Shown piece by piece: positions 4,064 to 41,986 of a stretch of 64,000 nt of DNA. Position 1 is the stretch's first letter. Every line of letters starts with the position of its first letter. This stretch comes from a virus. The stretch spans positions 9,972 through 73,971 of the IMG/VR virus record IMGVR_UViG_3300046779_001123; one strand, given 5' to 3'. The translations under genes were made by a program, and so were the position numbers. The notes below the pieces were generated by a model. That model saw only the letters and a list, made by a program, of their open reading frames with translations, searched no databases and was not told where the DNA came from.

Positions 4064-4329
4064 TTAAATGGTTTAAAAGAAAAATTCTTCACTGGGCGTG
4101 GGATATAGACGAGGAGCCCATTGAAGTAGGTCGCAATGGTCGATGCCTTGAATCAGATTACATTCGTATCGACATCTATCGCGGCGAAGGCGGTCTTGCT
4201 GTAGAAACGCTGATCTACAACAAGAAAAAAGATATAAATCACATCGGCTTTCACATTGTCCACGACGACGAAGAACTCGGCAATAGACTTAGTAAAATTA
4301 TCACAGCAGAAAGTATCAAATCACTATGA
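4060..4329 (+). CDS. Hypothetical protein
   Basis: ATGA start/stop overlap with the upstream ORF. Confidence 0.35.
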   Translation: MIKWFKRKILHWAWDIDEEPIEVGRNGRCLESDYIRIDIYRGEGGLAVETLIYNKKKDINHIGFHIVHDDEELGNRLSKIITAESIKSL

Positions 4330-6056: not shown

Positions 6057-7243
6057 GAAAACTATACTACATGGGCTTGGAAAGCTATGAAGCCCGTTAC
6101 ACACTACAACTAACAGAATGGAACCGTCGTGTGTTTGAGCGCCGCGGTCTAGACGTTGTTTATGTTCCTGGCACTACAATTGACAACACACAAGCTATCT
6201 CCGTAGGGCAAGTGTTGGACGCACACGGTCGCAGTTATTTTGCCATGAGCCAAATGATGAACTTGGTTCAAATGATGAAGAACGGCGAAGTCACAGAGTC
6301 CGACGTTATTTACTTTGAAGACATGTTCCAGCCCGGCTTCGAAAGTCTTGGTTATATCATGAATCAAATTCCGCCAGGACATTGCCCACGTATCTATGTG
6401 CGTTGTTTGGCACAGGCCATTGACCCCGATGACTTTGTGCATGTGTGGGGCTTGCAGAAGTGGATGAATTTATATGAGCATATGGTCAATGAAATGGTGG
6501 CGTTCTCTGGTGGAGCCGTTCTGGCAACCAACGAGGAAATGGTGGCTCACATGCGGATTGCTGGCTGGACTGCTCCGATCTACAACATTTCCGGCCTGGC
6601 ATTTGGCAAATCAGAAGTTCTTGAGCGACTGGGCGGCAAAGAAAACATCCGTCCGTTTAATCAGCGTACCAGGAGGGTGGGTTTCGCAGCAAGATTCGAC
6701 CAAGAAAAGCAACCTGGCTTTTACATGGACCTTGCTGAAGAGTATCAAAAGAGATATCCTGGCACAGAGTTCGCTATATTTCAGGGTGGTCCGCTACGCT
6801 CCAACAATCAAGCGTATGTTGACAGAGCAAGAAATCTCGAGGCTAGCGGCAAGATTAAAATCTACGAGAATCTAAGCAAAAATGATTACTATAATCTACT
6901 CAATGATACTTGCGTTCTATTTAACTGTGCTTTACAAGACTGGGTTTCGAACACTGTGTCGGAAGCAGATAGTCTTGGTTGTAATGTGCTGTATCCTGCT
7001 TATCGGAGTTTCCCAGAAACTTTTGCCAATGATCCAGAACGCTTATACATCCCCTGGAGCCAGGATGATGCAATTCGTAAACTAGAAATGTTAATGACAG
7101 GACTGCACCCAAATGCTGGCAAGATTAGTGACTGGAACGATGGATGTGTTGACCGCATTGTTGATATTATTACTGGCATGGGCAGTCAATGGGATCGGTC
7201 GGGCAACCGTTATCGTGATCACGTTGCTGGGGCAAAATACTAA
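6053..7243 (+). CDS. Putative glycosyltransferase (GT-B-like)
   Basis: ~396 aa, N-terminus MRKLYYMGLE weakly resembles phage alpha-glucosyltransferase; C-terminal KIKIYENLS...CNVLYP resembles GT-B C-domain; weak. Confidence 0.35.
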   Translation: MRKLYYMGLESYEARYTLQLTEWNRRVFERRGLDVVYVPGTTIDNTQAISVGQVLDAHGRSYFAMSQMMNLVQMMKNGEVTESDVIYFEDMFQPGFESLGYIMNQIPPGHCPRIYVRCLAQAIDPDDFVHVWGLQKWMNLYEHMVNEMVAFSGGAVLATNEEMVAHMRIAGWTAPIYNISGLAFGKSEVLERLGGKENIRPFNQRTRRVGFAARFDQEKQPGFYMDLAEEYQKRYPGTEFAIFQGGPLRSNNQAYVDRARNLEASGKIKIYENLSKNDYYNLLNDTCVLFNCALQDWVSNTVSEADSLGCNVLYPAYRSFPETFANDPERLYIPWSQDDAIRKLEMLMTGLHPNAGKISDWNDGCVDRIVDIITGMGSQWDRSGNRYRDHVAGAKY

Positions 7244-8191
7244 ATGTCAACTGTAATTGTCACCGGCTCAGCTGGATACATTGGCGGACAAACTGCCCTG
7301 TTGTTAAAAGACGCAGGGCACGAAGTCTATGGCATTGACCGTAGAGAACCGCCACGGCATCTAGCAGGTGTTGTAGATGGGTTCTTGTATCAAGATTTTG
7401 CCAGTGATGTGGCATTAAGCTGGATTATACAAAAACAACCCACGGCTATCGTTCACTGTGCCGGCACCAGTCTCGTTGGCCCTAGTGTTGAGAACCCTGC
7501 AGAGTATTACAACAACAATGTAGTTAAGACACTGAAGTTGTTGGATATTGTTCGCAAGAGTTTGCCAAGAACAAGAATTATTTTTAGTTCTAGTGCTGCA
7601 ACTTACGGCGAGCCTGTAATGACTCCCATTGACGAATCATTCCCTGAATTGCCTGTAAGTCCTTACGGCGAAAGCAAGTATATAATTGACATGATGTTGC
7701 AATCGTACCATAAGGCCTATGGGTTGGACTATGTGTCATTCCGCTACTTCAATGCTTGTGGTGCCGATCCTAAAGGTAGGCATGGTCAAGAGCCTGGCGC
7801 CACACATTTAATTGCTCGCTTCTTAGAAGCAGCAAGAGATCAAGGAACGTTTAAAGTTTATGGAGTTGATTATCCTACTAGTGATGGTACTTGTGTTCGC
7901 GATTACGTGCATGTGGATGATATCGCCCGAGCCCACGCTTTGGCAATCTATCACAAAGTCCCTGCGGGCGTCTACAACCTTGGATCAAATCAAGGACACA
8001 CGGTCAAACAAGTAATAGAACGTGCAATGGCTATCACCGGCAAGCGGCCCGAGATTCAGTTTGGTGCTGCACGACCCGGCGATCCTGCTAAGTTAACAGC
8101 CACCGCAGCTAAGTTTGATTTGTTAGCAGGCGCTTGGAGACATTATACATTGGATGACATGATCCAACATGCATGGAACTGGTATGTTTGA
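7244..8191 (+). CDS. galE: UDP-glucose 4-epimerase / NAD-dependent epimerase-dehydratase
   Basis: VTGSAGYIGG Rossmann motif, YGESK catalytic YxxxK, RYFN. Confidence 0.85.
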   Translation: MSTVIVTGSAGYIGGQTALLLKDAGHEVYGIDRREPPRHLAGVVDGFLYQDFASDVALSWIIQKQPTAIVHCAGTSLVGPSVENPAEYYNNNVVKTLKLLDIVRKSLPRTRIIFSSSAATYGEPVMTPIDESFPELPVSPYGESKYIIDMMLQSYHKAYGLDYVSFRYFNACGADPKGRHGQEPGATHLIARFLEAARDQGTFKVYGVDYPTSDGTCVRDYVHVDDIARAHALAIYHKVPAGVYNLGSNQGHTVKQVIERAMAITGKRPEIQFGAARPGDPAKLTATAAKFDLLAGAWRHYTLDDMIQHAWNWYV

Positions 8192-8789
8192 AAAAATTAA
8201 AGAATTTGAAACAAAGCTCGCAGAGTTTACTGGATCTCCGTATGCAATTATGACTGATTGTTGCACACACGCTATTGAAATGTGTTTGCGATATGACCAA
8301 ATTACAGATTGCTCTTTTACACCTTACACCTATTTGAGCATTCCTATGACTATGCACAAGTTAGGAATTGAGTATAGCTATTTTCCAGATCATTTGCCGC
8401 ACAGGCAACAATGGACAGGTGAATACAAATTTGAAGGTACACGTATTTGGGACTCTGCTCGTAGATTAGAACGCAACATGTATCGCCCTGGTCAGATGCA
8501 ATGTTTGAGTTTTGGACATACTAAGCCTTTACATATCGGCCATGGTGGTGCTATACTGTTGGATGACAAGCGGGCGTATGATGACATAATTCGTATGCGA
8601 TACGACGGTCGCGATCTAAATATATCGCCCTGGGCAGAACAAAAGGTATTTTATGTTGGATACCATTACAAACCAAGCATTGAAGATGCTATTCAAGGCA
8701 TAGCATTGTTGGTCGGGCTTGAGGAGTATTGCCCTGAACCTAAATTTGTTCAATATCCAGATCTAAGACAAATCATTATTAAGGACTAA
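8184..8789 (+). CDS. Shortened DegT/DnrJ/EryC1-family PLP-dependent sugar aminotransferase-like protein
   Basis: FETKLAEFTGSPYAIMT and SFGHTKPLHIGHGGAIL match DegT blocks including the PLP lysine; only ~200 aa against ~370 expected. Confidence 0.45.
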   Translation: MFEKIKEFETKLAEFTGSPYAIMTDCCTHAIEMCLRYDQITDCSFTPYTYLSIPMTMHKLGIEYSYFPDHLPHRQQWTGEYKFEGTRIWDSARRLERNMYRPGQMQCLSFGHTKPLHIGHGGAILLDDKRAYDDIIRMRYDGRDLNISPWAEQKVFYVGYHYKPSIEDAIQGIALLVGLEEYCPEPKFVQYPDLRQIIIKD

Positions 8790-8790
8790 A

Positions 8791-9492
8791 ATGACAGACA
8801 ACAGTTTGAATCTATCACAAGCAATTCGCAATCAAATGAAATCACAAGGCAAGCGTTTCTGGGCCGGCGACAACATCAGCGACTATGTTGATGAAGAACA
8901 AAAACAAGTTCTAATCAACGAAGCAACCGTGGCGTTTGAGCAGGTTTTAGATGCACTATTAATCGACAGAGAAAATGATCCAAACTCTAAAGGCACAGCA
9001 AGACGACTTGCAAAAATGTATTTCAATGAAATCATGGCTGGCAGGTATGAGGAGAGCCCTTCAGCAACGGCGTTTCCTAATGACACAGAAGGAGCATATG
9101 AAGGTATGCTGGTGGTGCGTTCGGAGCTTAAAAGCATGTGTAGCCACCATCACCAACCTGTTACGGGTGTGGCTTATATTGGAATCATTGCTGGTCCCAA
9201 ACTCATTGGCCTATCAAAATACACTCGCATTGCGCAATGGTGTGCCCGTCGAGGAACGTTACAGGAAGAGCTGTGTATGGATATCGCTAGAGAAATTGAA
9301 ACAGCAACTGGATCCAAAGACGTTGCAGTTTATATCCAAGCTACCCACGGATGCTGTGAGAATCGTGGTATTATGGCACACTCTAGTCTTACACAAACCA
9401 CAGTTCTACACGGTGCATTTAAAACAGATGCAGGCGTGAAAAAAGAGTTTTTTGACAACATCAAACTGCAACAGGACTTTGCGCCGCGCTAA
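8791..9492 (+). CDS. folE: GTP cyclohydrolase I
   Basis: SMCSHHH, GLSKYTRIAQWCARR, QEELCMDIA, ATHGCCENRG match FolE blocks. Confidence 0.8.
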   Translation: MTDNSLNLSQAIRNQMKSQGKRFWAGDNISDYVDEEQKQVLINEATVAFEQVLDALLIDRENDPNSKGTARRLAKMYFNEIMAGRYEESPSATAFPNDTEGAYEGMLVVRSELKSMCSHHHQPVTGVAYIGIIAGPKLIGLSKYTRIAQWCARRGTLQEELCMDIAREIETATGSKDVAVYIQATHGCCENRGIMAHSSLTQTTVLHGAFKTDAGVKKEFFDNIKLQQDFAPR

Positions 9493-9527: not shown

Positions 9528-10763
9528 ATGAACAAAATTCTTGCACCTATTTTTCTGTGTACTTTAGTATTAACCGGCTGCGGCGGCGGCGGAACGTCTA
9601 TTGCTGGCGGCGGAACGAGCACTACTATTACTTCCGCAACAAATACAATGAATGCAGTAGTTCGAACTACCTCTACTGCACTAAATCTAGTTAACACATT
9701 AGCAGTAGGTGATCTAAACAACGACGGTCTAGACGATGTAGTCATAGGTGGGTGGGTCAACGATGGCACTCACACAGCACGAATTTATGTGTTTTATCAA
9801 AATAGCAATGGCACATTGACAGAAAAAACCACAGAAGTATTGACATCAAATACTTACAGCGGCAGTCAGCATGTGTTTATAAAAGACTTTGACGGTGATG
9901 GGCGCAATGATATTTTCCTTCCGGCATTCGACGATGGCGTTGGCCAACCCGTAGCCAACAGTGTGTTCTTTTGGAACAACTCTGGACAGTTTGTTCGCCA
10001 AGATCTAACAGATCAAGTCTACGCCCACGGTGCTTGCTACAACGATATTGATCGTGATGGCGATATTGACATATTGGTCAGTGGCGCCAACGGCGGTTTA
10101 TATGTCAACAACGGAAACAGAAATTTCTCAATTCAGACCGCAGTATTGCCCAACGACTTCTTTGCCACTTGCAGTGTAATTCACAATTCTAACAATACAA
10201 TTTCTATTATCATGGGCCAAAGCGGGTTGGTTGCAGGATTTAAATCATCTATCCTAACTATAGATCGAAATTTCAATGTTGTTTCTAATGTAGGTGTTGT
10301 TGCTCCTACCAATAATGGTGTAGAATTTGATTTGATCAACAGTCGTGCCATGGATGTCAATAATGACGGCAACACAGATTTTGTTGCAGTGTTCAACGAC
10401 ATGGCACCTGGGGTTCCTGGGGCCAAGCAAGTATTGCTGGGAGACGGGCAAGGCAACTTTGTAGCACAGCCGGCATTTGATACACAATATAACAATGCCT
10501 ATTATTCACACACAATTTTCACTGCAGGGCATATCACTGTGTTGTTTGGTGCCGACAACGGGCATACAAAACTTTATCAAATCATCAACGGTGTATGGAC
10601 GTTATACAAACAAGATGTGTTAGACTCGATGGCTGCGTCTGTTGGTGCTAGTGCAGGAAATTGGAATATCGGGCATGGCACAGTTTACCAAAACACTGTT
10701 AATGGCCGTGTATATGTGCTACAATATCTAGCAGGAAAATATTATACAAAAGAACTCATATGA
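9528..10763 (+). CDS. Lipoprotein with FG-GAP/VCBS-like Ca-binding repeats
   Basis: Signal peptide + LTGC lipobox; repeated DxNxDGxxD motifs (DLNNDGLDD, DFDGDGRND, DIDRDGDID, DVNNDGNTD). Confidence 0.6.
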   Translation: MNKILAPIFLCTLVLTGCGGGGTSIAGGGTSTTITSATNTMNAVVRTTSTALNLVNTLAVGDLNNDGLDDVVIGGWVNDGTHTARIYVFYQNSNGTLTEKTTEVLTSNTYSGSQHVFIKDFDGDGRNDIFLPAFDDGVGQPVANSVFFWNNSGQFVRQDLTDQVYAHGACYNDIDRDGDIDILVSGANGGLYVNNGNRNFSIQTAVLPNDFFATCSVIHNSNNTISIIMGQSGLVAGFKSSILTIDRNFNVVSNVGVVAPTNNGVEFDLINSRAMDVNNDGNTDFVAVFNDMAPGVPGAKQVLLGDGQGNFVAQPAFDTQYNNAYYSHTIFTAGHITVLFGADNGHTKLYQIINGVWTLYKQDVLDSMAASVGASAGNWNIGHGTVYQNTVNGRVYVLQYLAGKYYTKELI

Positions 10764-14365: not shown

Positions 14366-15081
14366 AAAACTATCTAGTGTGTGCTGTTCGTCCTATTGAG
14401 GATGGCTGGCACCTTGAAAAAAATCACGATCTGTATGCACAATACAGACAAATGTATGACCTGCGATTAGCAAGTTTCCGCAAGTTTGTTGAGGAACCAT
14501 TTGAAGCCGTTCTGTGGACTGATCCGGTTAAAAACAATGATGAGTATACCATTGCAAACTGGAACGCGATCAAGGAATTATGGCATAGCGAGCCGTGCAA
14601 TATCTTCTGGGCCGGGGCTGACACAATCATGACACAGCCTACAAGTTTGTTCAGCGATAGATTCAAAGAATATCGCATGTTCAACTACACTGACCCAAGG
14701 TCACACAGAGAATTTGCGCATTACTTCAACGACGATATTCAATACTATCCTCATACTATGAGCAAGGAGACGTGGGACTTAGGCGAGGAATTGTGGTCTC
14801 AACGCGAAGGTCATCCAGATCAGTTTTGGGGATTTGATCAGAATAGACACAACACAATGTTTTGGAGTCAAGACATCCCAGACAACGATCGATTCCATCC
14901 CCATCTAGCATACCAGGCAATGCAACTTAGAGAGCTAACACAACAAGTAATAGATAAGCATAATGCGTGGAATGGCTTGGACATACGTCAAGCACACATT
15001 ATACATTTTCATGCCAGTCGTGGCAGTCAACAGGTCATTGATCTCATGCGTTTTATTTCTCAACAACTAGGTATCATTTAA
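14359..15081 (+). CDS. Hypothetical protein in the sugar cluster
   Basis: 240-aa ORF, W/H-rich, no clear motif. Confidence 0.4.
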   Translation: MVKNYLVCAVRPIEDGWHLEKNHDLYAQYRQMYDLRLASFRKFVEEPFEAVLWTDPVKNNDEYTIANWNAIKELWHSEPCNIFWAGADTIMTQPTSLFSDRFKEYRMFNYTDPRSHREFAHYFNDDIQYYPHTMSKETWDLGEELWSQREGHPDQFWGFDQNRHNTMFWSQDIPDNDRFHPHLAYQAMQLRELTQQVIDKHNAWNGLDIRQAHIIHFHASRGSQQVIDLMRFISQQLGII

Positions 15082-16400
15082 TGGAAGAAATTCTCAAATT
15101 AGTGCGAGAGCACATCGAACAAAAACAAGCTAACAAAACTTGGACAGCTGGCGAGGACTTTGTAAACTATGCCGGATCTTATTTTGATGAAAAAGAATTT
15201 GTTGCTGCGGTGGAAAGTTTGCTCAAAGGTTGGCTTGTCATGGGCGACGCTGGCTTGAAGTTTGAGCGTGAGTTTCCGCAATATTTTGGCAAAAGCAAAG
15301 GCATTCTGACAAACTCCGGGTCATCTAGCAACTTGCTGATGATGTCAGCGTTAACATCCAAGCGTGGTTACAACTTGCCTAAAGGCACAAAAGTGTTAAT
15401 GCCTATTGCAGGTTTTCCTACCACACTAAACCCAACATTACAAGTGGGGTTTGAACCTGTGTTTGTGGACATTGAACTAGATACTCTTAATTTAGACTTG
15501 GATCAAGTTGAAATGAGATTGATATCTGATCCTTCTATTCGTGTAATTACATTTGCTCATGTGCTAGGTAATCCCCCAGCAATGGATCGATTGATGGAAT
15601 TAGTCGAGCGGCATGATCTTATTTTGTTAGAAGATTGTTGCGATGCATTGGGCAGCACATATGACGGCAAACCCTTGGGCAGTTATGGCTTGATGGCATC
15701 GTGCAGTTTCTATCCAGCACACCACATGACCATGGGCGAAGGCGGCTATGTTGCCACCAATGACGCAAACACAGATGTTATCTTACGTTCATTCCGTGAA
15801 TGGGGCCGTGGTTGCTATTGCGTAGGCCCAGAGGCCAATAAGTTGAAATGCGGCACTTGTGGCAATAGATTCAACAACTGGATTCCAACCTTGCCCAATG
15901 AAATATTTGATCACAAATACGTCTATGACGAAATTGGCTACAACATGAAGCCCATTGAAGTTCAATGTGCCATGGGCTTGGAGCAGTTGAAAAAGTTGCC
16001 TGAAATTCATGCCTTGCGTCGACGCAACTATCAATTACTATTTGACATTTACAAAGACTATGAAGAATTCTTCTACTTACCAAGAGCGACTGCAAAGTCT
16101 GACCCTAGTTGGTTTGCTTTCCCACTCACCATACGCCCGGGTGCTCCCTTTACTAGGAATGACATTGTGGATTACCTCGAAGAAAATCTCATTCAAACTC
16201 GTCCTTATTTTGCTGGCAATATTATGTTGCAGCCTGCTTATAGCCATTTGATGGATCCGCAGAAAGCCAAGGACAATTTCCCCAACGCAACACACGCAAT
16301 GACACACACTTACTTCCATGGAACAAGTCCAGTCATTACACCCGAACAAATTGAATATATTGGTTCAGTGGTTCGCGGTTTCTTAAGTTTATATCGATAA
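15081..16400 (+). CDS. DegT-family PMP-dependent NDP-4-keto-6-deoxyhexose 3-dehydrase (E1/RfbH/ColD-like)
   Basis: SFYPAHHMTMGEGG with His replacing the PLP Lys, as in E1/ColD; 439 aa. Confidence 0.7.
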   Translation: MEEILKLVREHIEQKQANKTWTAGEDFVNYAGSYFDEKEFVAAVESLLKGWLVMGDAGLKFEREFPQYFGKSKGILTNSGSSSNLLMMSALTSKRGYNLPKGTKVLMPIAGFPTTLNPTLQVGFEPVFVDIELDTLNLDLDQVEMRLISDPSIRVITFAHVLGNPPAMDRLMELVERHDLILLEDCCDALGSTYDGKPLGSYGLMASCSFYPAHHMTMGEGGYVATNDANTDVILRSFREWGRGCYCVGPEANKLKCGTCGNRFNNWIPTLPNEIFDHKYVYDEIGYNMKPIEVQCAMGLEQLKKLPEIHALRRRNYQLLFDIYKDYEEFFYLPRATAKSDPSWFAFPLTIRPGAPFTRNDIVDYLEENLIQTRPYFAGNIMLQPAYSHLMDPQKAKDNFPNATHAMTHTYFHGTSPVITPEQIEYIGSVVRGFLSLYR

Positions 16401-16410
16401 GGAGACAGCC

Positions 16411-18171
16411 ATGAAGGGTAGTCAATACGTAGCAAAGTTTTTAAAGGCCGTTGGTGCCAACAAAGTTTTCCAAGTGCAAGGTGGTGCAATCACATTTATG
16501 GTTGATCAAATTGCCCTAGAAGAAGGCATGGAAGTCGTTTGCTTCCAGCACGAGCAAGCCGCTGCAATGGCAGCAGATGCACTGTGGCGCACAAATGGAC
16601 AACTAGGTGTGTCAATGGCAACGTCTGGTCCTGGTGCATCAAACTTGATCACCGGTATTGCTTGTGGCTATTACGATAGTATTCCTAGCTTGCACATCAC
16701 AGGGCAAGTAAACTATGAAGAACAAAAACTCTATCGTGGTGCTGCTGTTCGCCAAGCTGGTTTTCAACAAATGGACATTGTCTCTATGGTCAAGCCTGTT
16801 TGCAAATATGCTGTGAACGTCACAACACACGATGACATGCGCCAAGAACTTAAACGTTGTGTGGAAGAAGCATACTCGGGCCGCATGGGTCCTGTGCTGA
16901 TTGACATTCCCATGAACTTGCAAAACGCCGAAATGGAAGATAGCACAATGTTGTTGCCTGATTCTTCAAAATGGAGTGCCGTTGACACTGGTATTCTTCC
17001 CGAGGGAGTTGGCAGCGCAATTCAACACTTCTTAGGCAGTGCCAAGCGACCACTTATTATATTCGGCGCAGGTGTTGGCCTTGCAGGTAAGCAAGCAGAA
17101 CTTGAGCGTTGGTTAGGCTCTAATAAGATTCCGTTTGTTGCTACTTGGGCTGCATTAAATTACTTTAGTCACGAAGCACCTACCTACATCGGACACTTTG
17201 GTGTGTATGGCAATCGCGGCGGTAACAATGCTATTCAAAACGCAGACCGCATTCTTGTGCTAGGTTCTCGCTTAGACAACCGCCAGCGGTCAGGAAACCC
17301 TGCTAACTTTGCACCTAATGCTAAAATCTTGTGTATTGATATTGACCCAGCTGAGTTAGAAAAACTAGATCCAGCGAACTATCGCGGCATCGAATTCGAC
17401 TTGCGTAATCTTGACAAAGCATTGCGTGGTGTAGAGAAGCCCAAGTTTGATCCAGAATGGGGTAAGTATTGCCAAAGTCTCAAGGCAAAGTATTTTAACA
17501 AAGATACTAGTTCATACAGCCAACAACACGATGTTATGAGTCCGTATGCAGTGGTAGAAAAGCTACAGCAAGTAGCTGAGTCTGATGCTGTTATCACAAC
17601 AGATGCAGGTGCTAACCACTGCTGGGTTTACCAGTCATTCTATCGCAATCAAGATCAACTGTTAATGACCAGCTCGGGTCACTATGCCATGGGTTATGCA
17701 TTGCCTGCATCAATTGGTGCTGCATTGGTTGCACCTACTCGTCAGCACATTTGCTCCAATGGCGATGGTGGCATTCAAATGAACTTGCAAGAGCTGCAAA
17801 CTGTCAAAGAGTATGATTTGGATATCAAAGTTGTTGTGTTCAACAATCGTCGATTGGGAATGATTTGTCAGTTCCAAGACACTTATATGGATGGCCGTCA
17901 TGCTGCTACAGAGAATGGCCCCGGTCGTCCCGACTTTAGAAAGATTGCTGAAGCATTTGATTTTGATTATGTGTTGATTACTTCGTTAGATCAAATCAGT
18001 GCCGAGACACTAAAGCCCGGTCGTAGAATTATCGAAATCAAGATCCATCCTGGCGTGCAAATTGAACCTAAACTAGAAAAAGGTCGTCCTATTAATGATC
18101 AATCACCGTTGGTCAGCGACGAAGAGTTTGCTACTGGTAATCCATATTATACCTACGAGAGAATTCGTTGA
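16411..18171 (+). CDS. ThDP-dependent acetolactate-synthase-like enzyme (YerE-like branched-sugar synthase candidate)
   Basis: 586 aa; GDGGIQMNLQELQT ThDP-binding GDG-x24-N motif; AGGAGA RBS. Confidence 0.75.
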   Translation: MKGSQYVAKFLKAVGANKVFQVQGGAITFMVDQIALEEGMEVVCFQHEQAAAMAADALWRTNGQLGVSMATSGPGASNLITGIACGYYDSIPSLHITGQVNYEEQKLYRGAAVRQAGFQQMDIVSMVKPVCKYAVNVTTHDDMRQELKRCVEEAYSGRMGPVLIDIPMNLQNAEMEDSTMLLPDSSKWSAVDTGILPEGVGSAIQHFLGSAKRPLIIFGAGVGLAGKQAELERWLGSNKIPFVATWAALNYFSHEAPTYIGHFGVYGNRGGNNAIQNADRILVLGSRLDNRQRSGNPANFAPNAKILCIDIDPAELEKLDPANYRGIEFDLRNLDKALRGVEKPKFDPEWGKYCQSLKAKYFNKDTSSYSQQHDVMSPYAVVEKLQQVAESDAVITTDAGANHCWVYQSFYRNQDQLLMTSSGHYAMGYALPASIGAALVAPTRQHICSNGDGGIQMNLQELQTVKEYDLDIKVVVFNNRRLGMICQFQDTYMDGRHAATENGPGRPDFRKIAEAFDFDYVLITSLDQISAETLKPGRRIIEIKIHPGVQIEPKLEKGRPINDQSPLVSDEEFATGNPYYTYERIR

Positions 18172-28699: not shown

Positions 28700-29191
28700 T
28701 GTATTGCTGTAAAGACCGTAAGGAAAGAAACAGATAAAAATGGATTCAAGAAGAGGCTTCGAAGCCTCCAGGTCCACCATAAAACACATTAGCACAACAT
28801 TTTGACTTCCAGGTCTTTTTGGGTGTTGTGGTCGTTCTAGTGTGTTTTATAGAATACATTTCTTGGCTAGTACTGGAAAGAATACTTAATCGGGGCAACG
28901 AGCCTTAACTCCACCCGAAGAATGGTATCGTAAAGATATATGGACCGTCTATGTATTGTGAAGTGTATTTTATAATGGGCCTGACATGGTGATCGATTGG
29001 GTCAGGAGTATTGAAGTGGACAGCAGGGTAGGCGATGACCCTAAATCAAGCAAACTTAGTAAATGCAAACGCAAATACAAAAGGTGAAGTGGCTATCAAC
29101 GGTCGCGGTGTAAAAATCGCTCGTCGTGCTGCTGTATTGGCTTAATAACCCAAACACCCGGGGTAGGACTTACCTTGTAAACCAAACAACC
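28700..29191 (+). ncRNA. Candidate non-coding/small-peptide transcript bounded by promoter and terminator
   Basis: No ORF over 25 codons between promoter 28668 and terminator 29192; internal hairpin GAGGCTTCGAAGCCTC. Confidence 0.3.
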
Positions 29192-33268: not shown

Positions 33269-33366
33269 GGGAGCGTTGCTAATACTGGCCTTAGGGCGAG
33301 ACTTATACCCTCGTAAGCACTGTCTAGATAAGGCAGTTAATGTGGGTTCGATTCCCACCGCTCCTA
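33269..33366 (+). tRNA. Unusually long (98 nt) tRNA-like gene, possible anticodon TAT
   Basis: Acceptor GGGAGCG/CGCTCCT, T-arm GTGGGTTCGATTCCCAC, ~28-nt extra arm ACTGTC-TAGATAA-GGCAGT. Confidence 0.4.
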
Positions 33367-34256: not shown

Positions 34257-34328
34257 CCCTTTGAGATGTTAAGGCAGCATGCCGGACTCTTAATCCGTGA
34301 CGTGTGGGTTCGACTCCCACCAGAGGGA
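34257..34328 (+). tRNA. tRNA-Lys (CTT)
   Basis: Acceptor CCCTTTG/CAGAGGG, loop CTCTTAA. Confidence 0.55.
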
Positions 34329-34334
34329 CCATAT

Positions 34335-34405
34335 GGGGGTGAAACTTTAAGGTGAAGTAACCGGCTTTTAACCGGTAAAATTCGGATCGTTCCCGAACAC
34401 CCCTA
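34335..34405 (+). tRNA. tRNA-Lys (TTT)
   Basis: Stem ACCGG/CCGGT, loop CTTTTAA; non-canonical T-loop ATCGTTC. Confidence 0.7.
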
Positions 34406-34407
34406 CC

Positions 34408-35100
34408 ATATAAAAACACACTCTACCCTACCCTGGCTGGAACGGCTGTGCGGGGATAGGAGAACAGACCCGTTTGAGTGTGTTTCTATATGGTAACAAG
34501 GTTCGAAACTTGTCCTTCCGGTGGCGGAAATTTACCTGTAAGGGGAAAAACCGGTGCCATATAGAAATACATTATTGCCTGAAAAGATGAAAATTCTAGA
34601 CAAGTAATCATATGTTGTCTGCAGATGCGTTAGATATCGGCGTAATCACAGCAGAGGTATAGTGTGTTTCTATATGGTAAGTGTTATCTGCAGGTAACAC
34701 CCATGCTGGAGAGTAATTAACTCCAGGAGCTCGTAGTGATGGAACTGGAAGACATTCCTCCGTTATAGGAGGCGGGAGTTCCGCAAGGCCCCCATGCAGG
34801 TTCGAACCCTGCCTACAATGAGCTTGCATATAAAAGCATTCTTGGCATAAGTCAAAGCAGAAGAAGAAACCTAGTGGATGCATACGCGAAAGTTTCAGTG
34901 GTTCAACCCCCTTCTAGGCCTGCCGTCGAGAGTGCCTCTATATGTAATTAGAGATTGTTAATAAAGCGTAGAGCTCGATTGATGTCGGTGAAGTAACGCA
35001 TAGTTAGTTCGCAGTCATAGATATCGTAGACCACAATACAGCATACGCCATCATCACTTAGACTTAATTGAAAGTCTAATCCAGCTGGGGTTTGACTGTA
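34408..35100 (+). ncRNA. ~700-nt tRNA-free non-coding stretch with direct/inverted repeats (structured RNA candidate)
   Basis: AGTGTGTTTCTATATGGTAA at 34470 and 34661; 11-bp inverted partner CCATATAGAAA at 34557; several T-arm-like hairpins without acceptor closure. Confidence 0.3.
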
Positions 35101-37222: not shown

Positions 37223-37714
37223 ATGACAAAATTTAACATCGAAGAAATCCGTGACTTCATTGCGGCACAAAGTCCAGAAACCAAAATTTACATTGGTTGC
37301 GACTCTGAACGCACAAAGATCAACGGCGTATGGCATGCTGTATATACAGCCGCCATTGTAGTTCACATCAATGGCAACAATGGATGCAGACTATTCGGTG
37401 AAGTGACTCGTGAACGTGACTATGATCAAAAGGCCAATCGCCCTAGCACACGTTTAATGACCGAAGTTTACAAAGTTTCTGCTTTGTATTTGAAATTAGC
37501 AGATGTGTTAGAAGGTCGTGATGTTGAAGTTCACTTAGACGTCAACCCCGACGAACATTATGGTTCAAGCTGTGTTGTAAGCCAAGCTATCGGTTATATC
37601 CGTGGCGTTTGCAATGTTGAACCAATGGTTAAGCCGCAAGCGTTTGCCGCAAGTTATGCAGCCGACAGGTTCCGTAGCTTAGGCACAGCTCGAGGCCATG
37701 CCCAGGTGGTGTAA
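37223..37714 (+). CDS. Hypothetical protein
   Basis: GAGGAAAAA RBS; 3' end reads into tRNA-Leu. Confidence 0.4.
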   Translation: MTKFNIEEIRDFIAAQSPETKIYIGCDSERTKINGVWHAVYTAAIVVHINGNNGCRLFGEVTRERDYDQKANRPSTRLMTEVYKVSALYLKLADVLEGRDVEVHLDVNPDEHYGSSCVVSQAIGYIRGVCNVEPMVKPQAFAASYAADRFRSLGTARGHAQVV

Positions 37715-37778
37715 TTGGTAGCCACGTCAGACTCAAAATCTGATGCGCAAGCGTGTCGGTTCGAGTCCGACCCTGGGC
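37700..37778 (+). tRNA. tRNA-Leu (CAA)
   Basis: Stem TCAGA/TCTGA, loop CTCAAAA, long variable arm. Confidence 0.85.
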
Positions 37779-37812
37779 ACCACAATTTCGGTAAAACTGA
37801 TTAAAAAAGTTG

Positions 37813-37841
37813 TTGACAACTAAATCAGTTTATACTACAAT
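37813..37841 (+). promoter_or_regulatory. Sigma70-like promoter (TTGACA-17-TACAAT) driving the downstream structured region
   Basis: TTGACAACTAAATCAGTTTATACTACAAT. Confidence 0.5.
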
Positions 37842-37844
37842 AGA

Positions 37845-38335
37845 TACTTAGGGCAGTTTATTGTCCTGTAGCGTATGGTTCGCCCAGCGTTGCGAAGAAT
37901 AACTGTGGTGACACAGCCAAAGGAGGTAAGCCTACGCAACTCCGCCAGCAATGGTTCATGTAAACAAGCCTGCTCAGGTCCGTGAGGATCCGATCACTGA
38001 TAAGACCGGTGGTTGTAACAATGACGCTGGAAGTATAGGAAAGAGCTTTTGCTTACAAGCCCGCAAGGGGAACTTGAGTAGAAGAAAAGTAACAGGTGGT
38101 GCTGACTTCTATGCAAAACCAGTCCAGTTAATTGGTATGAGAAAGGGTAGTGTATTTGTCCGAGGGGTTGCACCCAAGGGCTTGTATGCAGTTTTAGTGG
38201 CAAGTGGAGGTACGCGAAAGCCGAGACCCGACACTGATCGCAAAAGACGACTGAGTAGTCCGCAAGACAAAAGGTACATGGTGAGTTGTATTATGCAATC
38301 CAAAAGATTGTGTAGCAACTGAGGCAGCTCATCGT
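37845..38335 (+). ncRNA. ~490-nt GC-rich structured ncRNA candidate
   Basis: Multiple GNRA-tetraloop hairpins (CCCGCAAGGGG, GCGAAAGC, CGCAAAAG); higher GC than neighbours; overlapping ORF 37951..38322 has R/K/G-rich protein-atypical composition and no RBS. Confidence 0.4.
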
Positions 38336-38339
38336 AGTA

Positions 38340-38411
38340 GGTTAAGTAGCACAATGGTAGTGCAGTTCCCTTTTAAGGAATAGGCTGTTGGTTCAAATCC
38401 AACCTTATACA
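38340..38411 (+). tRNA. tRNA-like gene, loop CTTTTAA (Lys-TTT-like), imperfect acceptor; possible pseudogene
   Basis: D-arm GCAC..GTGC, stem GTTCC/GGAAT, T-arm GTTGGTTCAAATCCAAC; acceptor pairs 5/7; no CCA. Confidence 0.3.
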
Positions 38412-38415
38412 AAAA

Positions 38416-38835
38416 TGCAAAGACTGCCTCGGTCATACGTGAAAAGCATCTAATGCTTGACACGCAAGTGAATCAAGTCTGACGTAGCTCGCAAGGTGAA
38501 ATCAGTTTGTGTTAGAAGTTTCGTAGCATCTTAGCGGATGTGAATGGCTCTAAAAGGTCAACGGGAAATAAGACACAGAGTAGCGTGTGACGACAAGTCT
38601 ACTGCCTGACTTTAAAAACGGCGATGCTGATAGCAGACAGTGATACCGCAAGGGTCGCTGTGGATGTCGGAAGAAGTAGTGCTCGCAAGGTGCTATATAA
38701 TGTCCGAGGTGCTATTGGCTTAAGGTGTAATCTCAACCTTAGGCACTATTATAAAACACATTAGTTGAGCTTGATGTTTTGACTGATCAACATAGCTACA
38801 TAGGGTAGATTAGTGTGTTTCATAATAGAAAGATT
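38416..38835 (+). ncRNA. ~420-nt non-coding structured region with repeated GCTCGCAAGGTG motif
   Basis: GTAGCTCGCAAGGTG at 38477 and GTGCTCGCAAGGTG at 38679; CCGCAAGGG hairpin; no ORF. Confidence 0.35.
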
Positions 38836-38837
38836 TT

Positions 38838-38912
38838 GTCTCGGTACCAGAGCGACTCAATGGCGTGGATTGCAAATCCATCGATTCGTAGGTTTGAATC
38901 CTACCCGGGACT
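38838..38912 (+). tRNA. tRNA-Cys (GCA)
   Basis: Loop TTGCAAA, T-arm GTAGGTTTGAATCCTAC. Confidence 0.75.
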
Positions 38913-39207
38913 CCAATTAGTTTTGCTAGTTTTCACAAAACTAGACTGTGATGTATGGAGATGAGGAGTTGCACAAGTAGTATCCGACTTGAAATTGGAA
39001 TACTGCATAATTAACGTGATCCAGTGTCCTGAGATGAATTGGCGAAAGCCGTGTTTGTTGATGCTCAGAAAAATTGGTATCCTCTGCTTGTTGAATGTTG
39101 CTTTGGCGCTATACTGTAATGGTTATGCCAATGTTAATTGCAAATTGTTCAGCGGCTTACTTGCCATACACTCACTGTTTTATATTCAAATAGAAAGGAA
39201 CTCGAAT

Positions 39208-39774
39208 ATGAAGATTACACTTCGCAAAGCAAATGCTTTACAAAACGCTATCCAAGACCACATCAAGACTCTTGATGTTAAGACCTCGATTTCTCTAAAC
39301 GAGTTCCAAAACATCGAAGGTGAGTTGGCTCTAGCTCGTGGTGTTGCATTTGAAAACGATCTTAAACGTGCTCGTTTGACAAAGGCATTGTATGGCATTC
39401 GTGCCCGTGTTGGTCGTGCTAATGTTGAATCTGGCGTAAGCGATTTGCTTGCTGATGCCGCTTATGTTGATAAGCGCCTGGGCCACTTGAAAGGCTTAAC
39501 TGAAAGCAAAGCAGTTGAACCGGCATCTGTTTTAAACGGCAAAGTTGAAAAACTTCGCAACACAGATGCCAAGAACCGTATGTATGGTTATAACGACACA
39601 GTTGATACTGGTGTGTTTACACCGGATCAAATCGAAGGCTACAAAGCAGACATGCGTAGCCTGAAGAAGGAAAAGCAAAGCATCAACGACAAGGTGCTAG
39701 AACTCAATGTTCGCACTGAAGTTGAGTTGGATGTAGACACTGTTGCACTGCTACAAGCAGAACAATTAGTGTAA
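39208..39774 (+). CDS. Hypothetical protein (coiled-coil-like)
   Basis: AAAGGAACT RBS; start trimmed from ORF 38989 to the internal ATG. Confidence 0.45.
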   Translation: MKITLRKANALQNAIQDHIKTLDVKTSISLNEFQNIEGELALARGVAFENDLKRARLTKALYGIRARVGRANVESGVSDLLADAAYVDKRLGHLKGLTESKAVEPASVLNGKVEKLRNTDAKNRMYGYNDTVDTGVFTPDQIEGYKADMRSLKKEKQSINDKVLELNVRTEVELDVDTVALLQAEQLV

Positions 39775-39781
39775 ATAGTTG

Positions 39782-39855
39782 TGCGGAAGAGTGAAACGGT
39801 TTCCACGGAAGTCTCATAAGCTTCAGACATCAGGTTCGACTCCTGCTTTCCGCAA
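39782..39855 (+). tRNA. tRNA anticodon CAT (Met, fMet or Ile2), copy 3
   Basis: Acceptor TGCGGAA/TTCCGCA, loop CTCATAA. Confidence 0.6.
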
Positions 39856-40087: not shown

Positions 40088-41986
40088 GTGCAGAAAATTA
40101 TCAGCTTTGTCCAAGTAAACTTTCAACAAGGACCTCGAGAACTCAACGCTTACTATCTACCCTACACCGCAGGTGTGGTGTTAGCCTACGCATTAGAGCA
40201 AAATCCAGACTGGAAACTCGGCGAACTTATATGGCGTAGAGATCCAATTGAAGAAACAGCACAACGTCTAAAGCACAGTGATGCAGTTGGGTTCAGCACG
40301 TATGTGTGGAATCATCAATACAACTATGCTCTAGCTAAACGAGTAAAAGAGCTTAATCCTAACTGCTTGATTGTAACCGGGGGTCCCGAGATTGCAATTA
40401 CAGATCCAGACTTGTTTATAAAAAACCCCTGGATGGATGCAGCAGTTAAGATGGAGGGCGAGCTTGTGTTTTCACAACTACTAAAAGAATATGGGAATAA
40501 CTTATTATCTATCTCAGGCTTAGTAGTTAACGTGGATGGACGGGCAGTAGACACAGGCAATAGTGATCGAATTAATACCTTAGACCAACTTCCAAGTCCG
40601 TATCTAACCGGACTGTTTGACGACCTATTGAGTGCCTACCCAGACATAACCTGGAACGCCACACTTGAAACAAATCGCGGTTGCCCATACCAATGCACGT
40701 TTTGCGATTGGGGTAGCCTTACTTACAATAAAGTAAAGCTATTCAACTTAGATCGTGTATTCCGTGAGTTAGAATGGATTGGCGAGCATTGCGGTTTCGT
40801 TACTATTACAGACGCAAACTTCGGAATGTTTGTTGAACGCGACAACTCAATTGTTTCAAAGTTGATCGAAGTCCAGTTACGTTGGAACAATCTTACTAGT
40901 TTCTCAATGACCTGGGCCAAGAATCAAAAGAACGAAGTTGTTGATATTGTGCGTAGACTTGTCGACGAAAGTCCCACAGCTAGTCAAGGACTTACTGTTA
41001 GTGTGCAAAGCATGAACGAAGGTGTGCTGGATATTATCAAGCGCCGCAACTTGGACCAACACAAGATTGAAGAAATATTTTCATTGTGTGATCGTTATAA
41101 CATTCCCGTGCATACCGAACTTATTTTAGGCTTGCCCGGTGATACAGAAGCCAGCTGGAAGGAAAATTTTTGGCGATTATTTAGAGCAGGCAATCACACA
41201 GGCATCAGCATACTACATGCACAGTTGTTAGAAAATGCTGAAATGAATATCAGCCAACGCAAATTCTACAAGCTAGACGCTGTTCCAATCTATGATTATA
41301 TGAGTGGCAGTTATAGCAATGGCGAAGTCGAAGAAAGCATGGAAGTAGTTGTCGGCACTAGAGATATACCGCGCAACAAAATGCTGGACTTGATGATATG
41401 GAACAGTTTCATACAAACATTTCATATTAATGGTTTGACAACTTACATTGCAAGATACATGGCCTCACAAGGTGTAGACTATAAAGAATTTTACGACAAA
41501 TTATGGTATCGATTGCAACGTGATCCATGGTGGCAACAGCAGTTTGCAACTACTCGAAAACTATACGAAGAGTGGATTAATAATGGCAGAGTCAATGTTC
41601 AAGTGGGCGGAATAAGTGTGCCTGGGTGGAATCTACACAACAGAATGACTTTGGTACTACATGCTGAACACAAAATCAATCAAACATACGATTTGATATA
41701 TCAATTCATTTGTGCAGAGTTTGATATCAACTGCGCAGATCAATTGACCGTATTTCAAAGATTTACTGTGATTGATCATGCTACATTATCAAAGTTTCCC
41801 CGGCGTCAACAATTTGATTGGGATTTTTGGGGATACTTGGTTCACGGTTCAGAAATAAATCAAGCAGTGTGCTATGAGTTTGACACTGCCGAAGACAAAA
41901 CAATGAGTGCCAAAATGTTTTTAGAAAATTTTTATTTCGGTCGTAAAAGAAATTTTGGTAAAACAAATATTACCCGGGTGGTGTAA
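40088..41986 (+). CDS. B12-binding radical SAM (class B) enzyme
   Basis: N-terminal B12-binding-like Rossmann region (LIVTGGPE), TNRGCPYQCTFCDW CxxxCxxC cluster; 632 aa; located between tRNA genes. Confidence 0.65.
   Translation: MQKIISFVQVNFQQGPRELNAYYLPYTAGVVLAYALEQNPDWKLGELIWRRDPIEETAQRLKHSDAVGFSTYVWNHQYNYALAKRVKELNPNCLIVTGGPEIAITDPDLFIKNPWMDAAVKMEGELVFSQLLKEYGNNLLSISGLVVNVDGRAVDTGNSDRINTLDQLPSPYLTGLFDDLLSAYPDITWNATLETNRGCPYQCTFCDWGSLTYNKVKLFNLDRVFRELEWIGEHCGFVTITDANFGMFVERDNSIVSKLIEVQLRWNNLTSFSMTWAKNQKNEVVDIVRRLVDESPTASQGLTVSVQSMNEGVLDIIKRRNLDQHKIEEIFSLCDRYNIPVHTELILGLPGDTEASWKENFWRLFRAGNHTGISILHAQLLENAEMNISQRKFYKLDAVPIYDYMSGSYSNGEVEESMEVVVGTRDIPRNKMLDLMIWNSFIQTFHINGLTTYIARYMASQGVDYKEFYDKLWYRLQRDPWWQQQFATTRKLYEEWINNGRVNVQVGGISVPGWNLHNRMTLVLHAEHKINQTYDLIYQFICAEFDINCADQLTVFQRFTVIDHATLSKFPRRQQFDWDFWGYLVHGSEINQAVCYEFDTAEDKTMSAKMFLENFYFGRKRNFGKTNITRVV

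Follow-up and report, generated by a model that had tools for sequence, protein, structure and literature searches.

What does a virus with a large island of transfer RNA (tRNA) genes encode between its tRNA-Leu (CAA) and tRNA-Cys genes? The stretch in question lies in a 64,000-nucleotide (nt) window, the whole piece of DNA analyzed here, which covers positions 9,972 to 73,971 of IMG/VR virus record IMGVR_UViG_3300046779_001123; coordinates below are those of the window unless a relative is named. A first-pass annotation, made from the letters without database searches, had described positions 37845..38835 as two long, structured, noncoding RNAs on either side of a degenerate tRNA, rich in GNRA tetraloops and driven by a consensus promoter. 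It had placed GOLLD first among the candidate families, with ROOL, group I introns and ribonuclease P (RNase P)-like RNA as alternatives, and had named cmscan against Rfam and covariation across relatives as checks, both of which were run. We find that the locus is a genuine GOLLD RNA, a further example of a known family and no new type of element. Taken as a whole, it is very probably one RNA of ~890 nt, likely to form a cage, that keeps a tRNA-like module in its linker. Direct support exists for family membership, for covarying structure in each of the two halves, for the promoter motif and a fixed architecture, and for the contrast between embedded and free acceptor ends.

A cmscan search of the whole window returned the Rfam GOLLD family (RF02032) at 38278..38739 on the plus strand with 210.6 bits, where the gathering score is 150, and E = 4e-58; the alignment spans model positions 1-416 of 416 and is the single outstanding non-tRNA match at gathering thresholds. 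Published phage GOLLDs rescored with the same tool (phiCbK, DSS3P8, Vibrio phage 70E35.6, PegLeg, and a Mesorhizobium phage) gave 150.7-216.4 bits; because the window RNA falls near the top of this range, we regard it as a strong member. The leading candidate of the first-pass annotation was therefore the right one, and its picture of a large ornate RNA adjoining phage tRNAs holds for a GOLLD in the 33-tRNA island of a large uncultured phage. Its alternatives fared otherwise: ROOL, group I and group II introns, RNase P RNA, and transfer-messenger RNA (tmRNA) were ruled out for 37780..38860, because no Rfam family except GOLLD and tRNA matches there at E <= 1, even under permissive filters. ROOL, which is likewise large, phage-associated and found near tRNA islands, and which builds cages of RNA alone whose internal loop is disordered (PMC12286853), differs in having an unrelated sequence and fold. 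When 37700..38920 was compared by blastn with 50,697 deposited phage genomes, tRNA-Leu matches were the only ones returned, so no cultured relative carries this RNA at the DNA level.

The conserved 3' region comprises the following elements:

38278..38339, plus strand: long hairpin that opens the conserved 3' region, the first in the Rfam GOLLD model (its positions 1-62, from cmscan)
38432..38739, plus strand: core of the GOLLD 3' domain (RF02032), helices h1-h14, ~310 nt
38677..38695, plus strand: clade-specific hairpin h13, UAGUGCU-CGCAA-GGUGCUA, an insertion in a loop of the Rfam model that holds the second copy of GCTCGCAAGGTG
38723..38739, plus strand: terminal hairpin AGGU-GUAAUCUCA-ACCU, the end of the 3' domain

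Across the 55 unique members of the clade, the 84 pairs of the 3' half are paired in 97.8% of cases, as against 31-40% when the partners are slid, and 67 of the 84 show compensatory change. Hairpin h13 has equal length in 46 of the 55 members, with 106 compensatory cells over its 7 pairs.

Because the Rfam model covers the 3' region only, as does the GOLLD alignment published by Kretsch et al. (Supplementary File 3), which is consequently of no use for naming 5' helices, we examined the 5' stretch on its own. Two full-length relatives, L002 and L029, and one partial relative came from loci surrounding homologs of the upstream protein-coding gene; L002 is 86% identical to the window in the 5' half and 77% in the 3' half. 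An 18-mer conserved in the relatives, GTAACAGGTGGTGCTGAC (position 38089 of the window), has exact matches in at least 119 IMG/VR contigs, and the contigs with homologs are viral and up to 424 kb long. Among the matches listed, 81 had sufficient flank around the 18-mer, and these are the homologous regions referred to below. The 5' stretch was resolved as follows:

37851..38275, plus strand: GOLLD 5' domain, ~425 nt, 20 helices H1-H20, from RNAalifold covariation
38089..38106, plus strand: invariant hairpin H15 with its flanks, GUAACAGGUGGUGCUGAC, stem CAG/CUG and loop GUGGUG, exact in at least 119 IMG/VR contigs
37951..38322, plus strand: open reading frame (ORF) of 123 amino acids (aa) with an ATG start, inside the RNA and not a gene; the only sizeable plus-strand ORF

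An RNAalifold consensus of 54 viral homologs with <90% pairwise identity contains 106 pairs, 80 of which are kept through compensatory changes. In this alignment 98.2% of cells are paired, compared with 36-42% after a shift of the 3' partners by 1-3 columns, and none of 500 column shuffles reaches any of five measures; in the window itself, 102 of the 106 pairs are canonical. Both halves thus keep their pairs through compensatory changes. No element of the 5' domain is more conserved than H15, which does not vary in any of the 54 aligned sequences and is a candidate for a tertiary or quaternary contact. The 5' domain appears to be a clade-specific elaboration, present in at least 119 IMG/VR contigs.

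The same alignment bears on whether the locus instead encodes a small protein, its hairpins being incidental. An ATG-initiated frame of 123 aa is indeed there, but it runs from the 5' domain into the Rfam-matched region; its frame is not preserved, the longest stop-free stretch ranging from 36 to 171 aa across the 81 homologs; and substitutions in the stems are compensatory, the pattern of paired RNA. This reading is effectively refuted.

How does this RNA compare with GOLLDs of known structure? Cryogenic electron microscopy (cryo-EM) of other members has revealed homo-oligomeric, RNA-only nanocages of 10-14 subunits, in which the 3' domains form a ring, the 5' domains form caps, and the linker reaches into the lumen (PMC12286853, PMC12990946). 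GOLLD env-38, from a marine metagenome, is a 14-mer (PDB 9MEE; PMC12286853), and the Streptococcus agalactiae GOLLD was solved as a 12-mer (PMC12286853, PMC12990946); in these solved RNAs the 5' domain comprises P1-P13. In env-38 a 5' region (residues 1-420) and a 3' region (421-833) are joined by a disordered linker, a part of the RNA in which tRNAs are sometimes found (PMC12286853, PMC12990946). The window RNA shares this layout: in both, a ~420-nt 5' domain is followed by a long hairpin, then by a linker and a conserved 3' domain, with a GUAnUCUCA hairpin at the end, and both RNAs adjoin tRNA genes. Three collinear motifs are common to the two: a 5'-terminal hairpin (GGnCnG-UNUA-UnGUCC), a CGAAAG..GAUAA junction, and the GGUGGUGC hairpin, which is H15. 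At H15, env-38 has GUACGGGUGGUGCCGU, the same loop with a compensatory change in the stem, and the exact H15 18-mer is found in L100, an IMG/VR locus collinear with env-38 and 58% identical to it. The two RNAs differ in that the env-38 linker lacks a tRNA, in that H15 is separated from the 3' region by ~190 nt in the window (H16-H20) but by ~85 nt in env-38, and in hairpin h13, which the window has in addition and env-38 does not. The oligomer number cannot be assumed. We read the two 5' domains as probably homologous with different peripheral elaboration, which fits the "variable 5' domain" of the literature.

These shared elements also speak to the idea that the 5' stretch belongs to another RNA class (ROOL, group I or II intron, RNase P RNA, or tmRNA) and merely abuts a GOLLD 3' domain. 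Phage tRNA islands do contain RNAs of these classes, and in this one a permuted tmRNA lies 9 kb upstream. Against this stand the Rfam matches, which in 37780..38860 at E <= 1 are to GOLLD and tRNA only, the occurrence of the three landmarks just named in GOLLDs of the env-38 type, and the fixed distance at which, in most of 66 regions that have both motifs, the 5' stretch lies collinear with the 3' domain. We give this possibility almost no weight.

The limits of the gene are set by the following features:

37813..37841, plus strand: predicted sigma-70-type promoter, with -35 TTGACA at 37813..37818, a 17-nt spacer, and -10 TACAAT at 37836..37841
37848..38739, plus strand: full-length GOLLD RNA gene, ~890 nt, its 5' end placed from the promoter and the first conserved hairpin and its 3' end from the last stem of the Rfam model
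38740..38837, plus strand: unconserved spacer of 98 nt between GOLLD and tRNA-Cys (38838..38915)

The predicted promoter matches the consensus at 11 of 12 positions, and its -10 element ends ~10 nt upstream of H1, the first hairpin, which would put the start of transcription at about 37846..37850. All four of the closest homologs have the -35 hexamer unchanged, and a site scoring at least 10 of 12 occurs in 28 of the 81 homologous regions, mostly with ~8-12 nt between the end of the -10 element and the first hairpin. The -35 element is flanked by a perfect 9-nt inverted repeat, AAACTGATT / AATCAGTTT at 37794..37802 and 37823..37831, and an inner GTTG..CAAC palindrome overlaps the -35 hexamer; the repeat has one mismatch in the close relative L001, is not evident in L002, and may represent an operator or mark where the upstream tRNA-Leu transcript ends. 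At the other end, the env-38 construct, which starts at a hairpin resembling H1, ends in ...GUAUUCUCAGCCU, the equivalent of 38727..38739, and the spacer 38740..38837 has no homolog in related loci by nhmmer or blastn. Both the 18-mer of the 5' half and the 3'-terminal motif are present in 66 of the 81 homologous regions, and in most of these they lie ~630-640 nt apart, the distance also seen in the window; this constant spacing argues for one RNA and not two.

Several details of the first-pass annotation can now be settled. Its two structured stretches flanking a tRNA exist, at 495 nt and 424 nt, but as domains of one RNA rather than as separate RNAs. Its interval is RNA as far as 38739, whereas 38740..38835 is unconserved spacer before tRNA-Cys. 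The consensus promoter is there as a prediction, in the form TTGACA-17-TACAAT. The hairpin motifs were placed correctly, with CCCGCAAGGGG at 38060, GCGAAAGC at 38214, CCGCAAGGG at 38061 and 38646, and two copies of GCTCGCAAGGTG at 38487 and 38681. Enrichment in G+C is present but modest (46.5% in the RNA, 42.8% in the whole window, 44.7% in the upstream gene). GNRA loops in the 5' domain cap or lie within H3 (GUGA), H5 (GCAA), H8 (GUGA), H14 (inside, GCAA), H18 (inside, GAAA), and H20 (GCAA). A strict count, limited to GNRA loops closed by at least 3 base pairs (bp), gives 6, compared with 2.3 +/- 1.5 after resampling, an excess that is only mildly unusual by itself since 31 of 1000 resamples reach 6.

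What, then, is the tRNA-like element in the middle of this RNA? The linker between the long hairpin and the 3' core consists of two parts:

38340..38411, plus strand: tRNA-like module, Lys (UUU), called by ARAGORN and matched by Rfam tRNA (RF00005) at 63.9 bits against a gathering score of 29
38412..38431, plus strand: A-rich stretch AAAAAUGCAAAGACUGCCUC at the 3' side of the linker, which the family consensus also has (cmscan, model positions ~129-156)

The module lies within the GOLLD match, in the model's long, unstructured, variable linker. It has canonical D, anticodon, and T arms, the anticodon loop CUUUUAA, and discriminator A, but its acceptor stem forms 5 of 7 pairs (mismatches G2.A71 and U3.U70) and AAA takes the place of CCA. 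The term "degenerate tRNA" thus suits its acceptor end and not its cloverleaf, which is sound. Among the homologous regions, 57 of 81 have a tRNA call at the same linker position, and most of the others still hold recognizable tRNA-like sequence there at the same spacing. The embedded anticodons in the 57 calls are Asn GUU (35), Lys UUU (10), and Lys CUU (4), with a few Gln, Ile, and Thr.

We compared embedded with free tRNAs by T-arm-anchored numbering, using 47 unique embedded sequences and 97 unique free tRNAs from the same loci and the window. CCA is encoded by 1 of the 47 embedded tRNAs and by 92 of the 97 free ones, and AAA directly follows the embedded tRNA in 32 of the 47. A fully paired acceptor stem is found in 8 of the 47 embedded tRNAs (mean 5.62 pairs, A+U-rich), as opposed to 82 of the 97 free ones (mean 6.84). 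Of 29 free tRNAs analyzed in the window, 27 have 7/7 acceptor pairs and 28 encode CCA; the embedded module has neither the 7-bp acceptor stem nor the encoded CCA of the maturation-competent acceptor end seen in nearly all of these tRNAs. Because an encoded CCA and a tight acceptor stem have been lost while the elbow and anticodon arm are kept, we infer that the module is retained and not matured, and embedded modules of this kind are probably not released as ordinary tRNAs. A literature search of incomplete coverage found no paper linking GOLLD with CCA or the acceptor stem.

The same contrast recurs in two cultured phages. In Caulobacter phage phiCbK (tRNA-Gly, 165.3 bits) and Mesorhizobium phage Cp1R7A-A1 (tRNA-Leu, 193.5 bits), as in the window, the Rfam GOLLD match spans an annotated tRNA that lacks CCA and has 5 of 7 acceptor pairs, and nearly all neighboring free tRNAs encode CCA and have 6-7 acceptor pairs. 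Both differ from the window in the tRNA species that they carry, in giving no match to a model of the 5' subdomain, and in having no similarity at the level of blastn. The GOLLD of M. aubagnense likewise sits inside a cluster of ~32 tRNAs and contains a pseudo-tRNA, but it lies on a bacterial chromosome or prophage in another host phylum, and the part described is just over 400 nt (PMC6582537). A Mycolicibacterium GOLLD with tRNA-Phe has also been cited (PMC12990946).

Two other fates of the module were weighed against retention. In the first, put forward in the literature as inhibited storage (PMC12990946, PMC12286853), a functional tRNA-Lys sits uncleaved in the cage until it is needed, for example late in infection or once the tRNA-Lys of the host has been destroyed; it would then be set free, CCA-tailed and charged. 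The canonical anticodon loop CU-UUU-AA and discriminator A are what a tRNA-Lys would be expected to have, and the stems of the module covary among homologs. However, the phage already has free tRNA-Lys(UUU) (34335..34408) and tRNA-Lys(CUU) (34257..34331) genes, as well as a free tRNA-Asn(GUU) gene, and the tRNA-Lys(CUU) and tRNA-Asn(GUU) genes are confirmed to encode CCA; two acceptor-stem mismatches lie near the end of the module; and embedded tRNA-Asn discriminators are mostly U or A, where free tRNA-Asn has G. Moreover, the anticodon flips among Asn, Lys, and others between close relatives, which is hard to reconcile with a need for one specific tRNA. We consider storage with release unlikely.

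In the second, RNase P and a 3' endonuclease cut at the tRNA to give a 5' RNA, a tRNA, and a 3' RNA, which act separately or reassemble noncovalently; this corresponds to the first-pass picture of two RNAs on either side of a tRNA. The canonical cloverleaf would suit these enzymes, and in cryo-EM structures the 5' and 3' regions constitute separate domains, with the isolated S. agalactiae 3' domain still able to oligomerize (PMC12286853, PMC12990946). Yet the near absence of encoded CCA and the weak, A+U-rich acceptor stems count against cleavage, as do the linkers of some close relatives, which are too degenerate for ARAGORN and still keep their spacing. In M. aubagnense no separate transcript of the pseudo-tRNA was detected (PMC6582537), and full-length GOLLD RNAs assemble in vitro (PMC12286853). 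To us this route seems a little less likely still than storage.

We therefore rank retention of the module, as cargo or as a structural part, first on the sequence evidence, with release on demand and constitutive splitting as live alternatives. In the mechanism that we propose, host RNA polymerase would start at the near-consensus sigma-70 promoter and produce a transcript of ~890 nt, composed of the structured 5' domain (~425 nt), the linker with its tRNA-like Lys(UUU), and, after the long hairpin, the 3' domain (~310 nt). By homology with the GOLLDs solved by cryo-EM, copies of this RNA would self-assemble into a closed, RNA-only dihedral cage, with the 3' domains as a ring, the 5' domains as caps, and the linker and tRNA-like module facing the lumen; by this analogy, cage assembly is the most likely fate of the window RNA. 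The module would remain covalently joined within the RNA, serving as cargo or a structural part, and would not be matured into a working tRNA. In Lactobacillus brevis, expression of GOLLD is reported to rise during phage-induced lysis (PMC12286853).

A more specific role can be imagined for the module, namely that it is a dedicated, non-released part, so that each cage displays 12-14 lumenal anticodon arms as a decoy or sponge for host defense nucleases that target tRNAs, or as a reserve protected from them. The PARIS effector AriB targets Lys UUU, Thr UGU, and Asn GUU (PMC12409363), and these overlap with the anticodons of the clade, where Asn GUU (35), Lys UUU (10), Lys CUU (4), and Thr UGU (1) make up 50 of 57. 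This overlap is a lead only, and could equally be explained by one ancestral embedded tRNA-Asn followed by single-base wobble changes; we regard the decoy or reserve role as improbable, below the two alternatives above.

A number of observations weigh against a single, cage-forming RNA with a retained module. Folding energy does not set the 5' half apart (minimum free energy z = -1.02), and since G+C content, GNRA count, and folding energy are all weak, the case rests on homology and covariation. The global identity of env-38 to the window is ~43%, near random overall, with three short shared motifs, and a covariance model of H10-H15, the best-supported 5' subdomain, found no match in five cultured-phage GOLLD loci, whether run with default filters or with filters off (best 9.1 bits, E ~1). 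Because the 5' domain can be related only weakly to that of env-38, stoichiometry and cap geometry are not confidently transferable. The limits of the transcript are predicted from sequence features. No terminator was predicted 3' of 38739, so transcription could read through into tRNA-Cys, and, as the next 98 nt are unconserved, the 3' end may arise by processing. Finally, with a cloverleaf as good as that of the module, RNase P and a 3' endonuclease could still excise it.

The surrounding island consists of 33 tRNA genes called by ARAGORN at 25.4-42 kb of the window, all on the plus strand, among which tRNA-Leu (CAA) is the immediate upstream neighbor of GOLLD and tRNA-Cys the downstream one. 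In L002, the closest full-length relative, an 89-nt "tRNA-???" with a two-base anticodon (gg) at 6219..6307 replaces the tRNA-Leu(CAA). A 91-nt ARAGORN "tRNA-???" is also present in the window at 34730..34820 (plus strand), with a two-base anticodon (ta), 5 of 7 acceptor pairs, and AGC instead of CCA; Rfam does not report it at gathering thresholds, but it is conserved in the closest relative (L001 502..592) and, rather than noise, may be a tRNA-like element of an unusual type. ARAGORN did not call two Rfam tRNA matches of 40 bits each, at 33269..33366 and 39783..39854 (plus strand); the length of the first, 98 nt, points to an insertion, an intron, or a long variable arm.

The permuted (two-piece type) tmRNA at 28705..29113 (plus strand), ~9 kb upstream of GOLLD, matches RF04321 at 66.6 bits against a gathering score of 47 and has a large insertion. 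In other phages tmRNA genes lie ~1-2 kb from GOLLD, namely in Roseobacter phage DSS3P8 (L201 2294..2592), phiCbK (L200 916..1234, minus strand), and PegLeg (L203 475..877), and Stenotrophomonas phage DLP6, which is without GOLLD, also carries one (L205 2839..3060).

The protein-coding gene just upstream of tRNA-Leu and GOLLD is the following:

37223..37714, plus strand: RNase H-like PF04308/DUF458 gene

Deposited phages with a homolog number 76; most are Vibrio phages, and four are listed as carriers of GOLLD (DSS3P8, Ruegeria phage V10, DSS3_MAL1, and Phaeobacter phage MD18). A GOLLD of the window type lies within 4 kb in 2 of 80 DUF458-centered loci, and, among the matches listed, a DUF458 gene occurs in 12 of 119 GOLLD-centered loci, at variable distance and on either side. 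On these counts a conserved DUF458-GOLLD unit was rejected, and the gene, not being tightly linked in metagenomic loci, is not counted in the GOLLD system; it is often found in the tRNA islands of phages. In DLP6 a 1.1-kb unannotated gap after the DUF458 gene was considered as a possible GOLLD and rejected, as it is filled with unannotated tRNAs. Rfam tRNA matches of 43-59 bits that are unannotated in DLP6 (KU682439.2, L205) lie at 4141..4213, 7899..7970, 8662..8735, 8828..8899, and 10268..10339, so the deposited record undercounts the tRNAs of this phage.

Downstream of tRNA-Cys, a mechanically called ORF at 38989..39774 (plus strand; TTG start, 261 aa) probably has its true start at ATG 39208, preceded by AAAGGAA, giving a 188-aa product for which no Pfam match was found. 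A 632-aa B12-binding/radical SAM protein follows at 40088..41986 (plus strand), its end overlapping tRNA-Leu(GAG) at 41972, with 2 weak matches among deposited phages. Other genes of metabolic type on the plus strand are a DegT/DnrJ/EryC1 aminotransferase and a three-domain thiamine-pyrophosphate enzyme, at 15081..16400 and 16411..18171, respectively.

GOLLD is among the few natural RNAs known to build cages without protein. The locus described here leaves the definition of the family unchanged and adds a full-length member with its own near-consensus promoter. The large clade to which it belongs, with at least 119 viral contigs, provides a covariation-grade model of the 5' domain, which lies outside the coverage of Rfam. 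The contrast between linker and free tRNAs bears on whether the cage stores, hides, or simply uses its tRNA.

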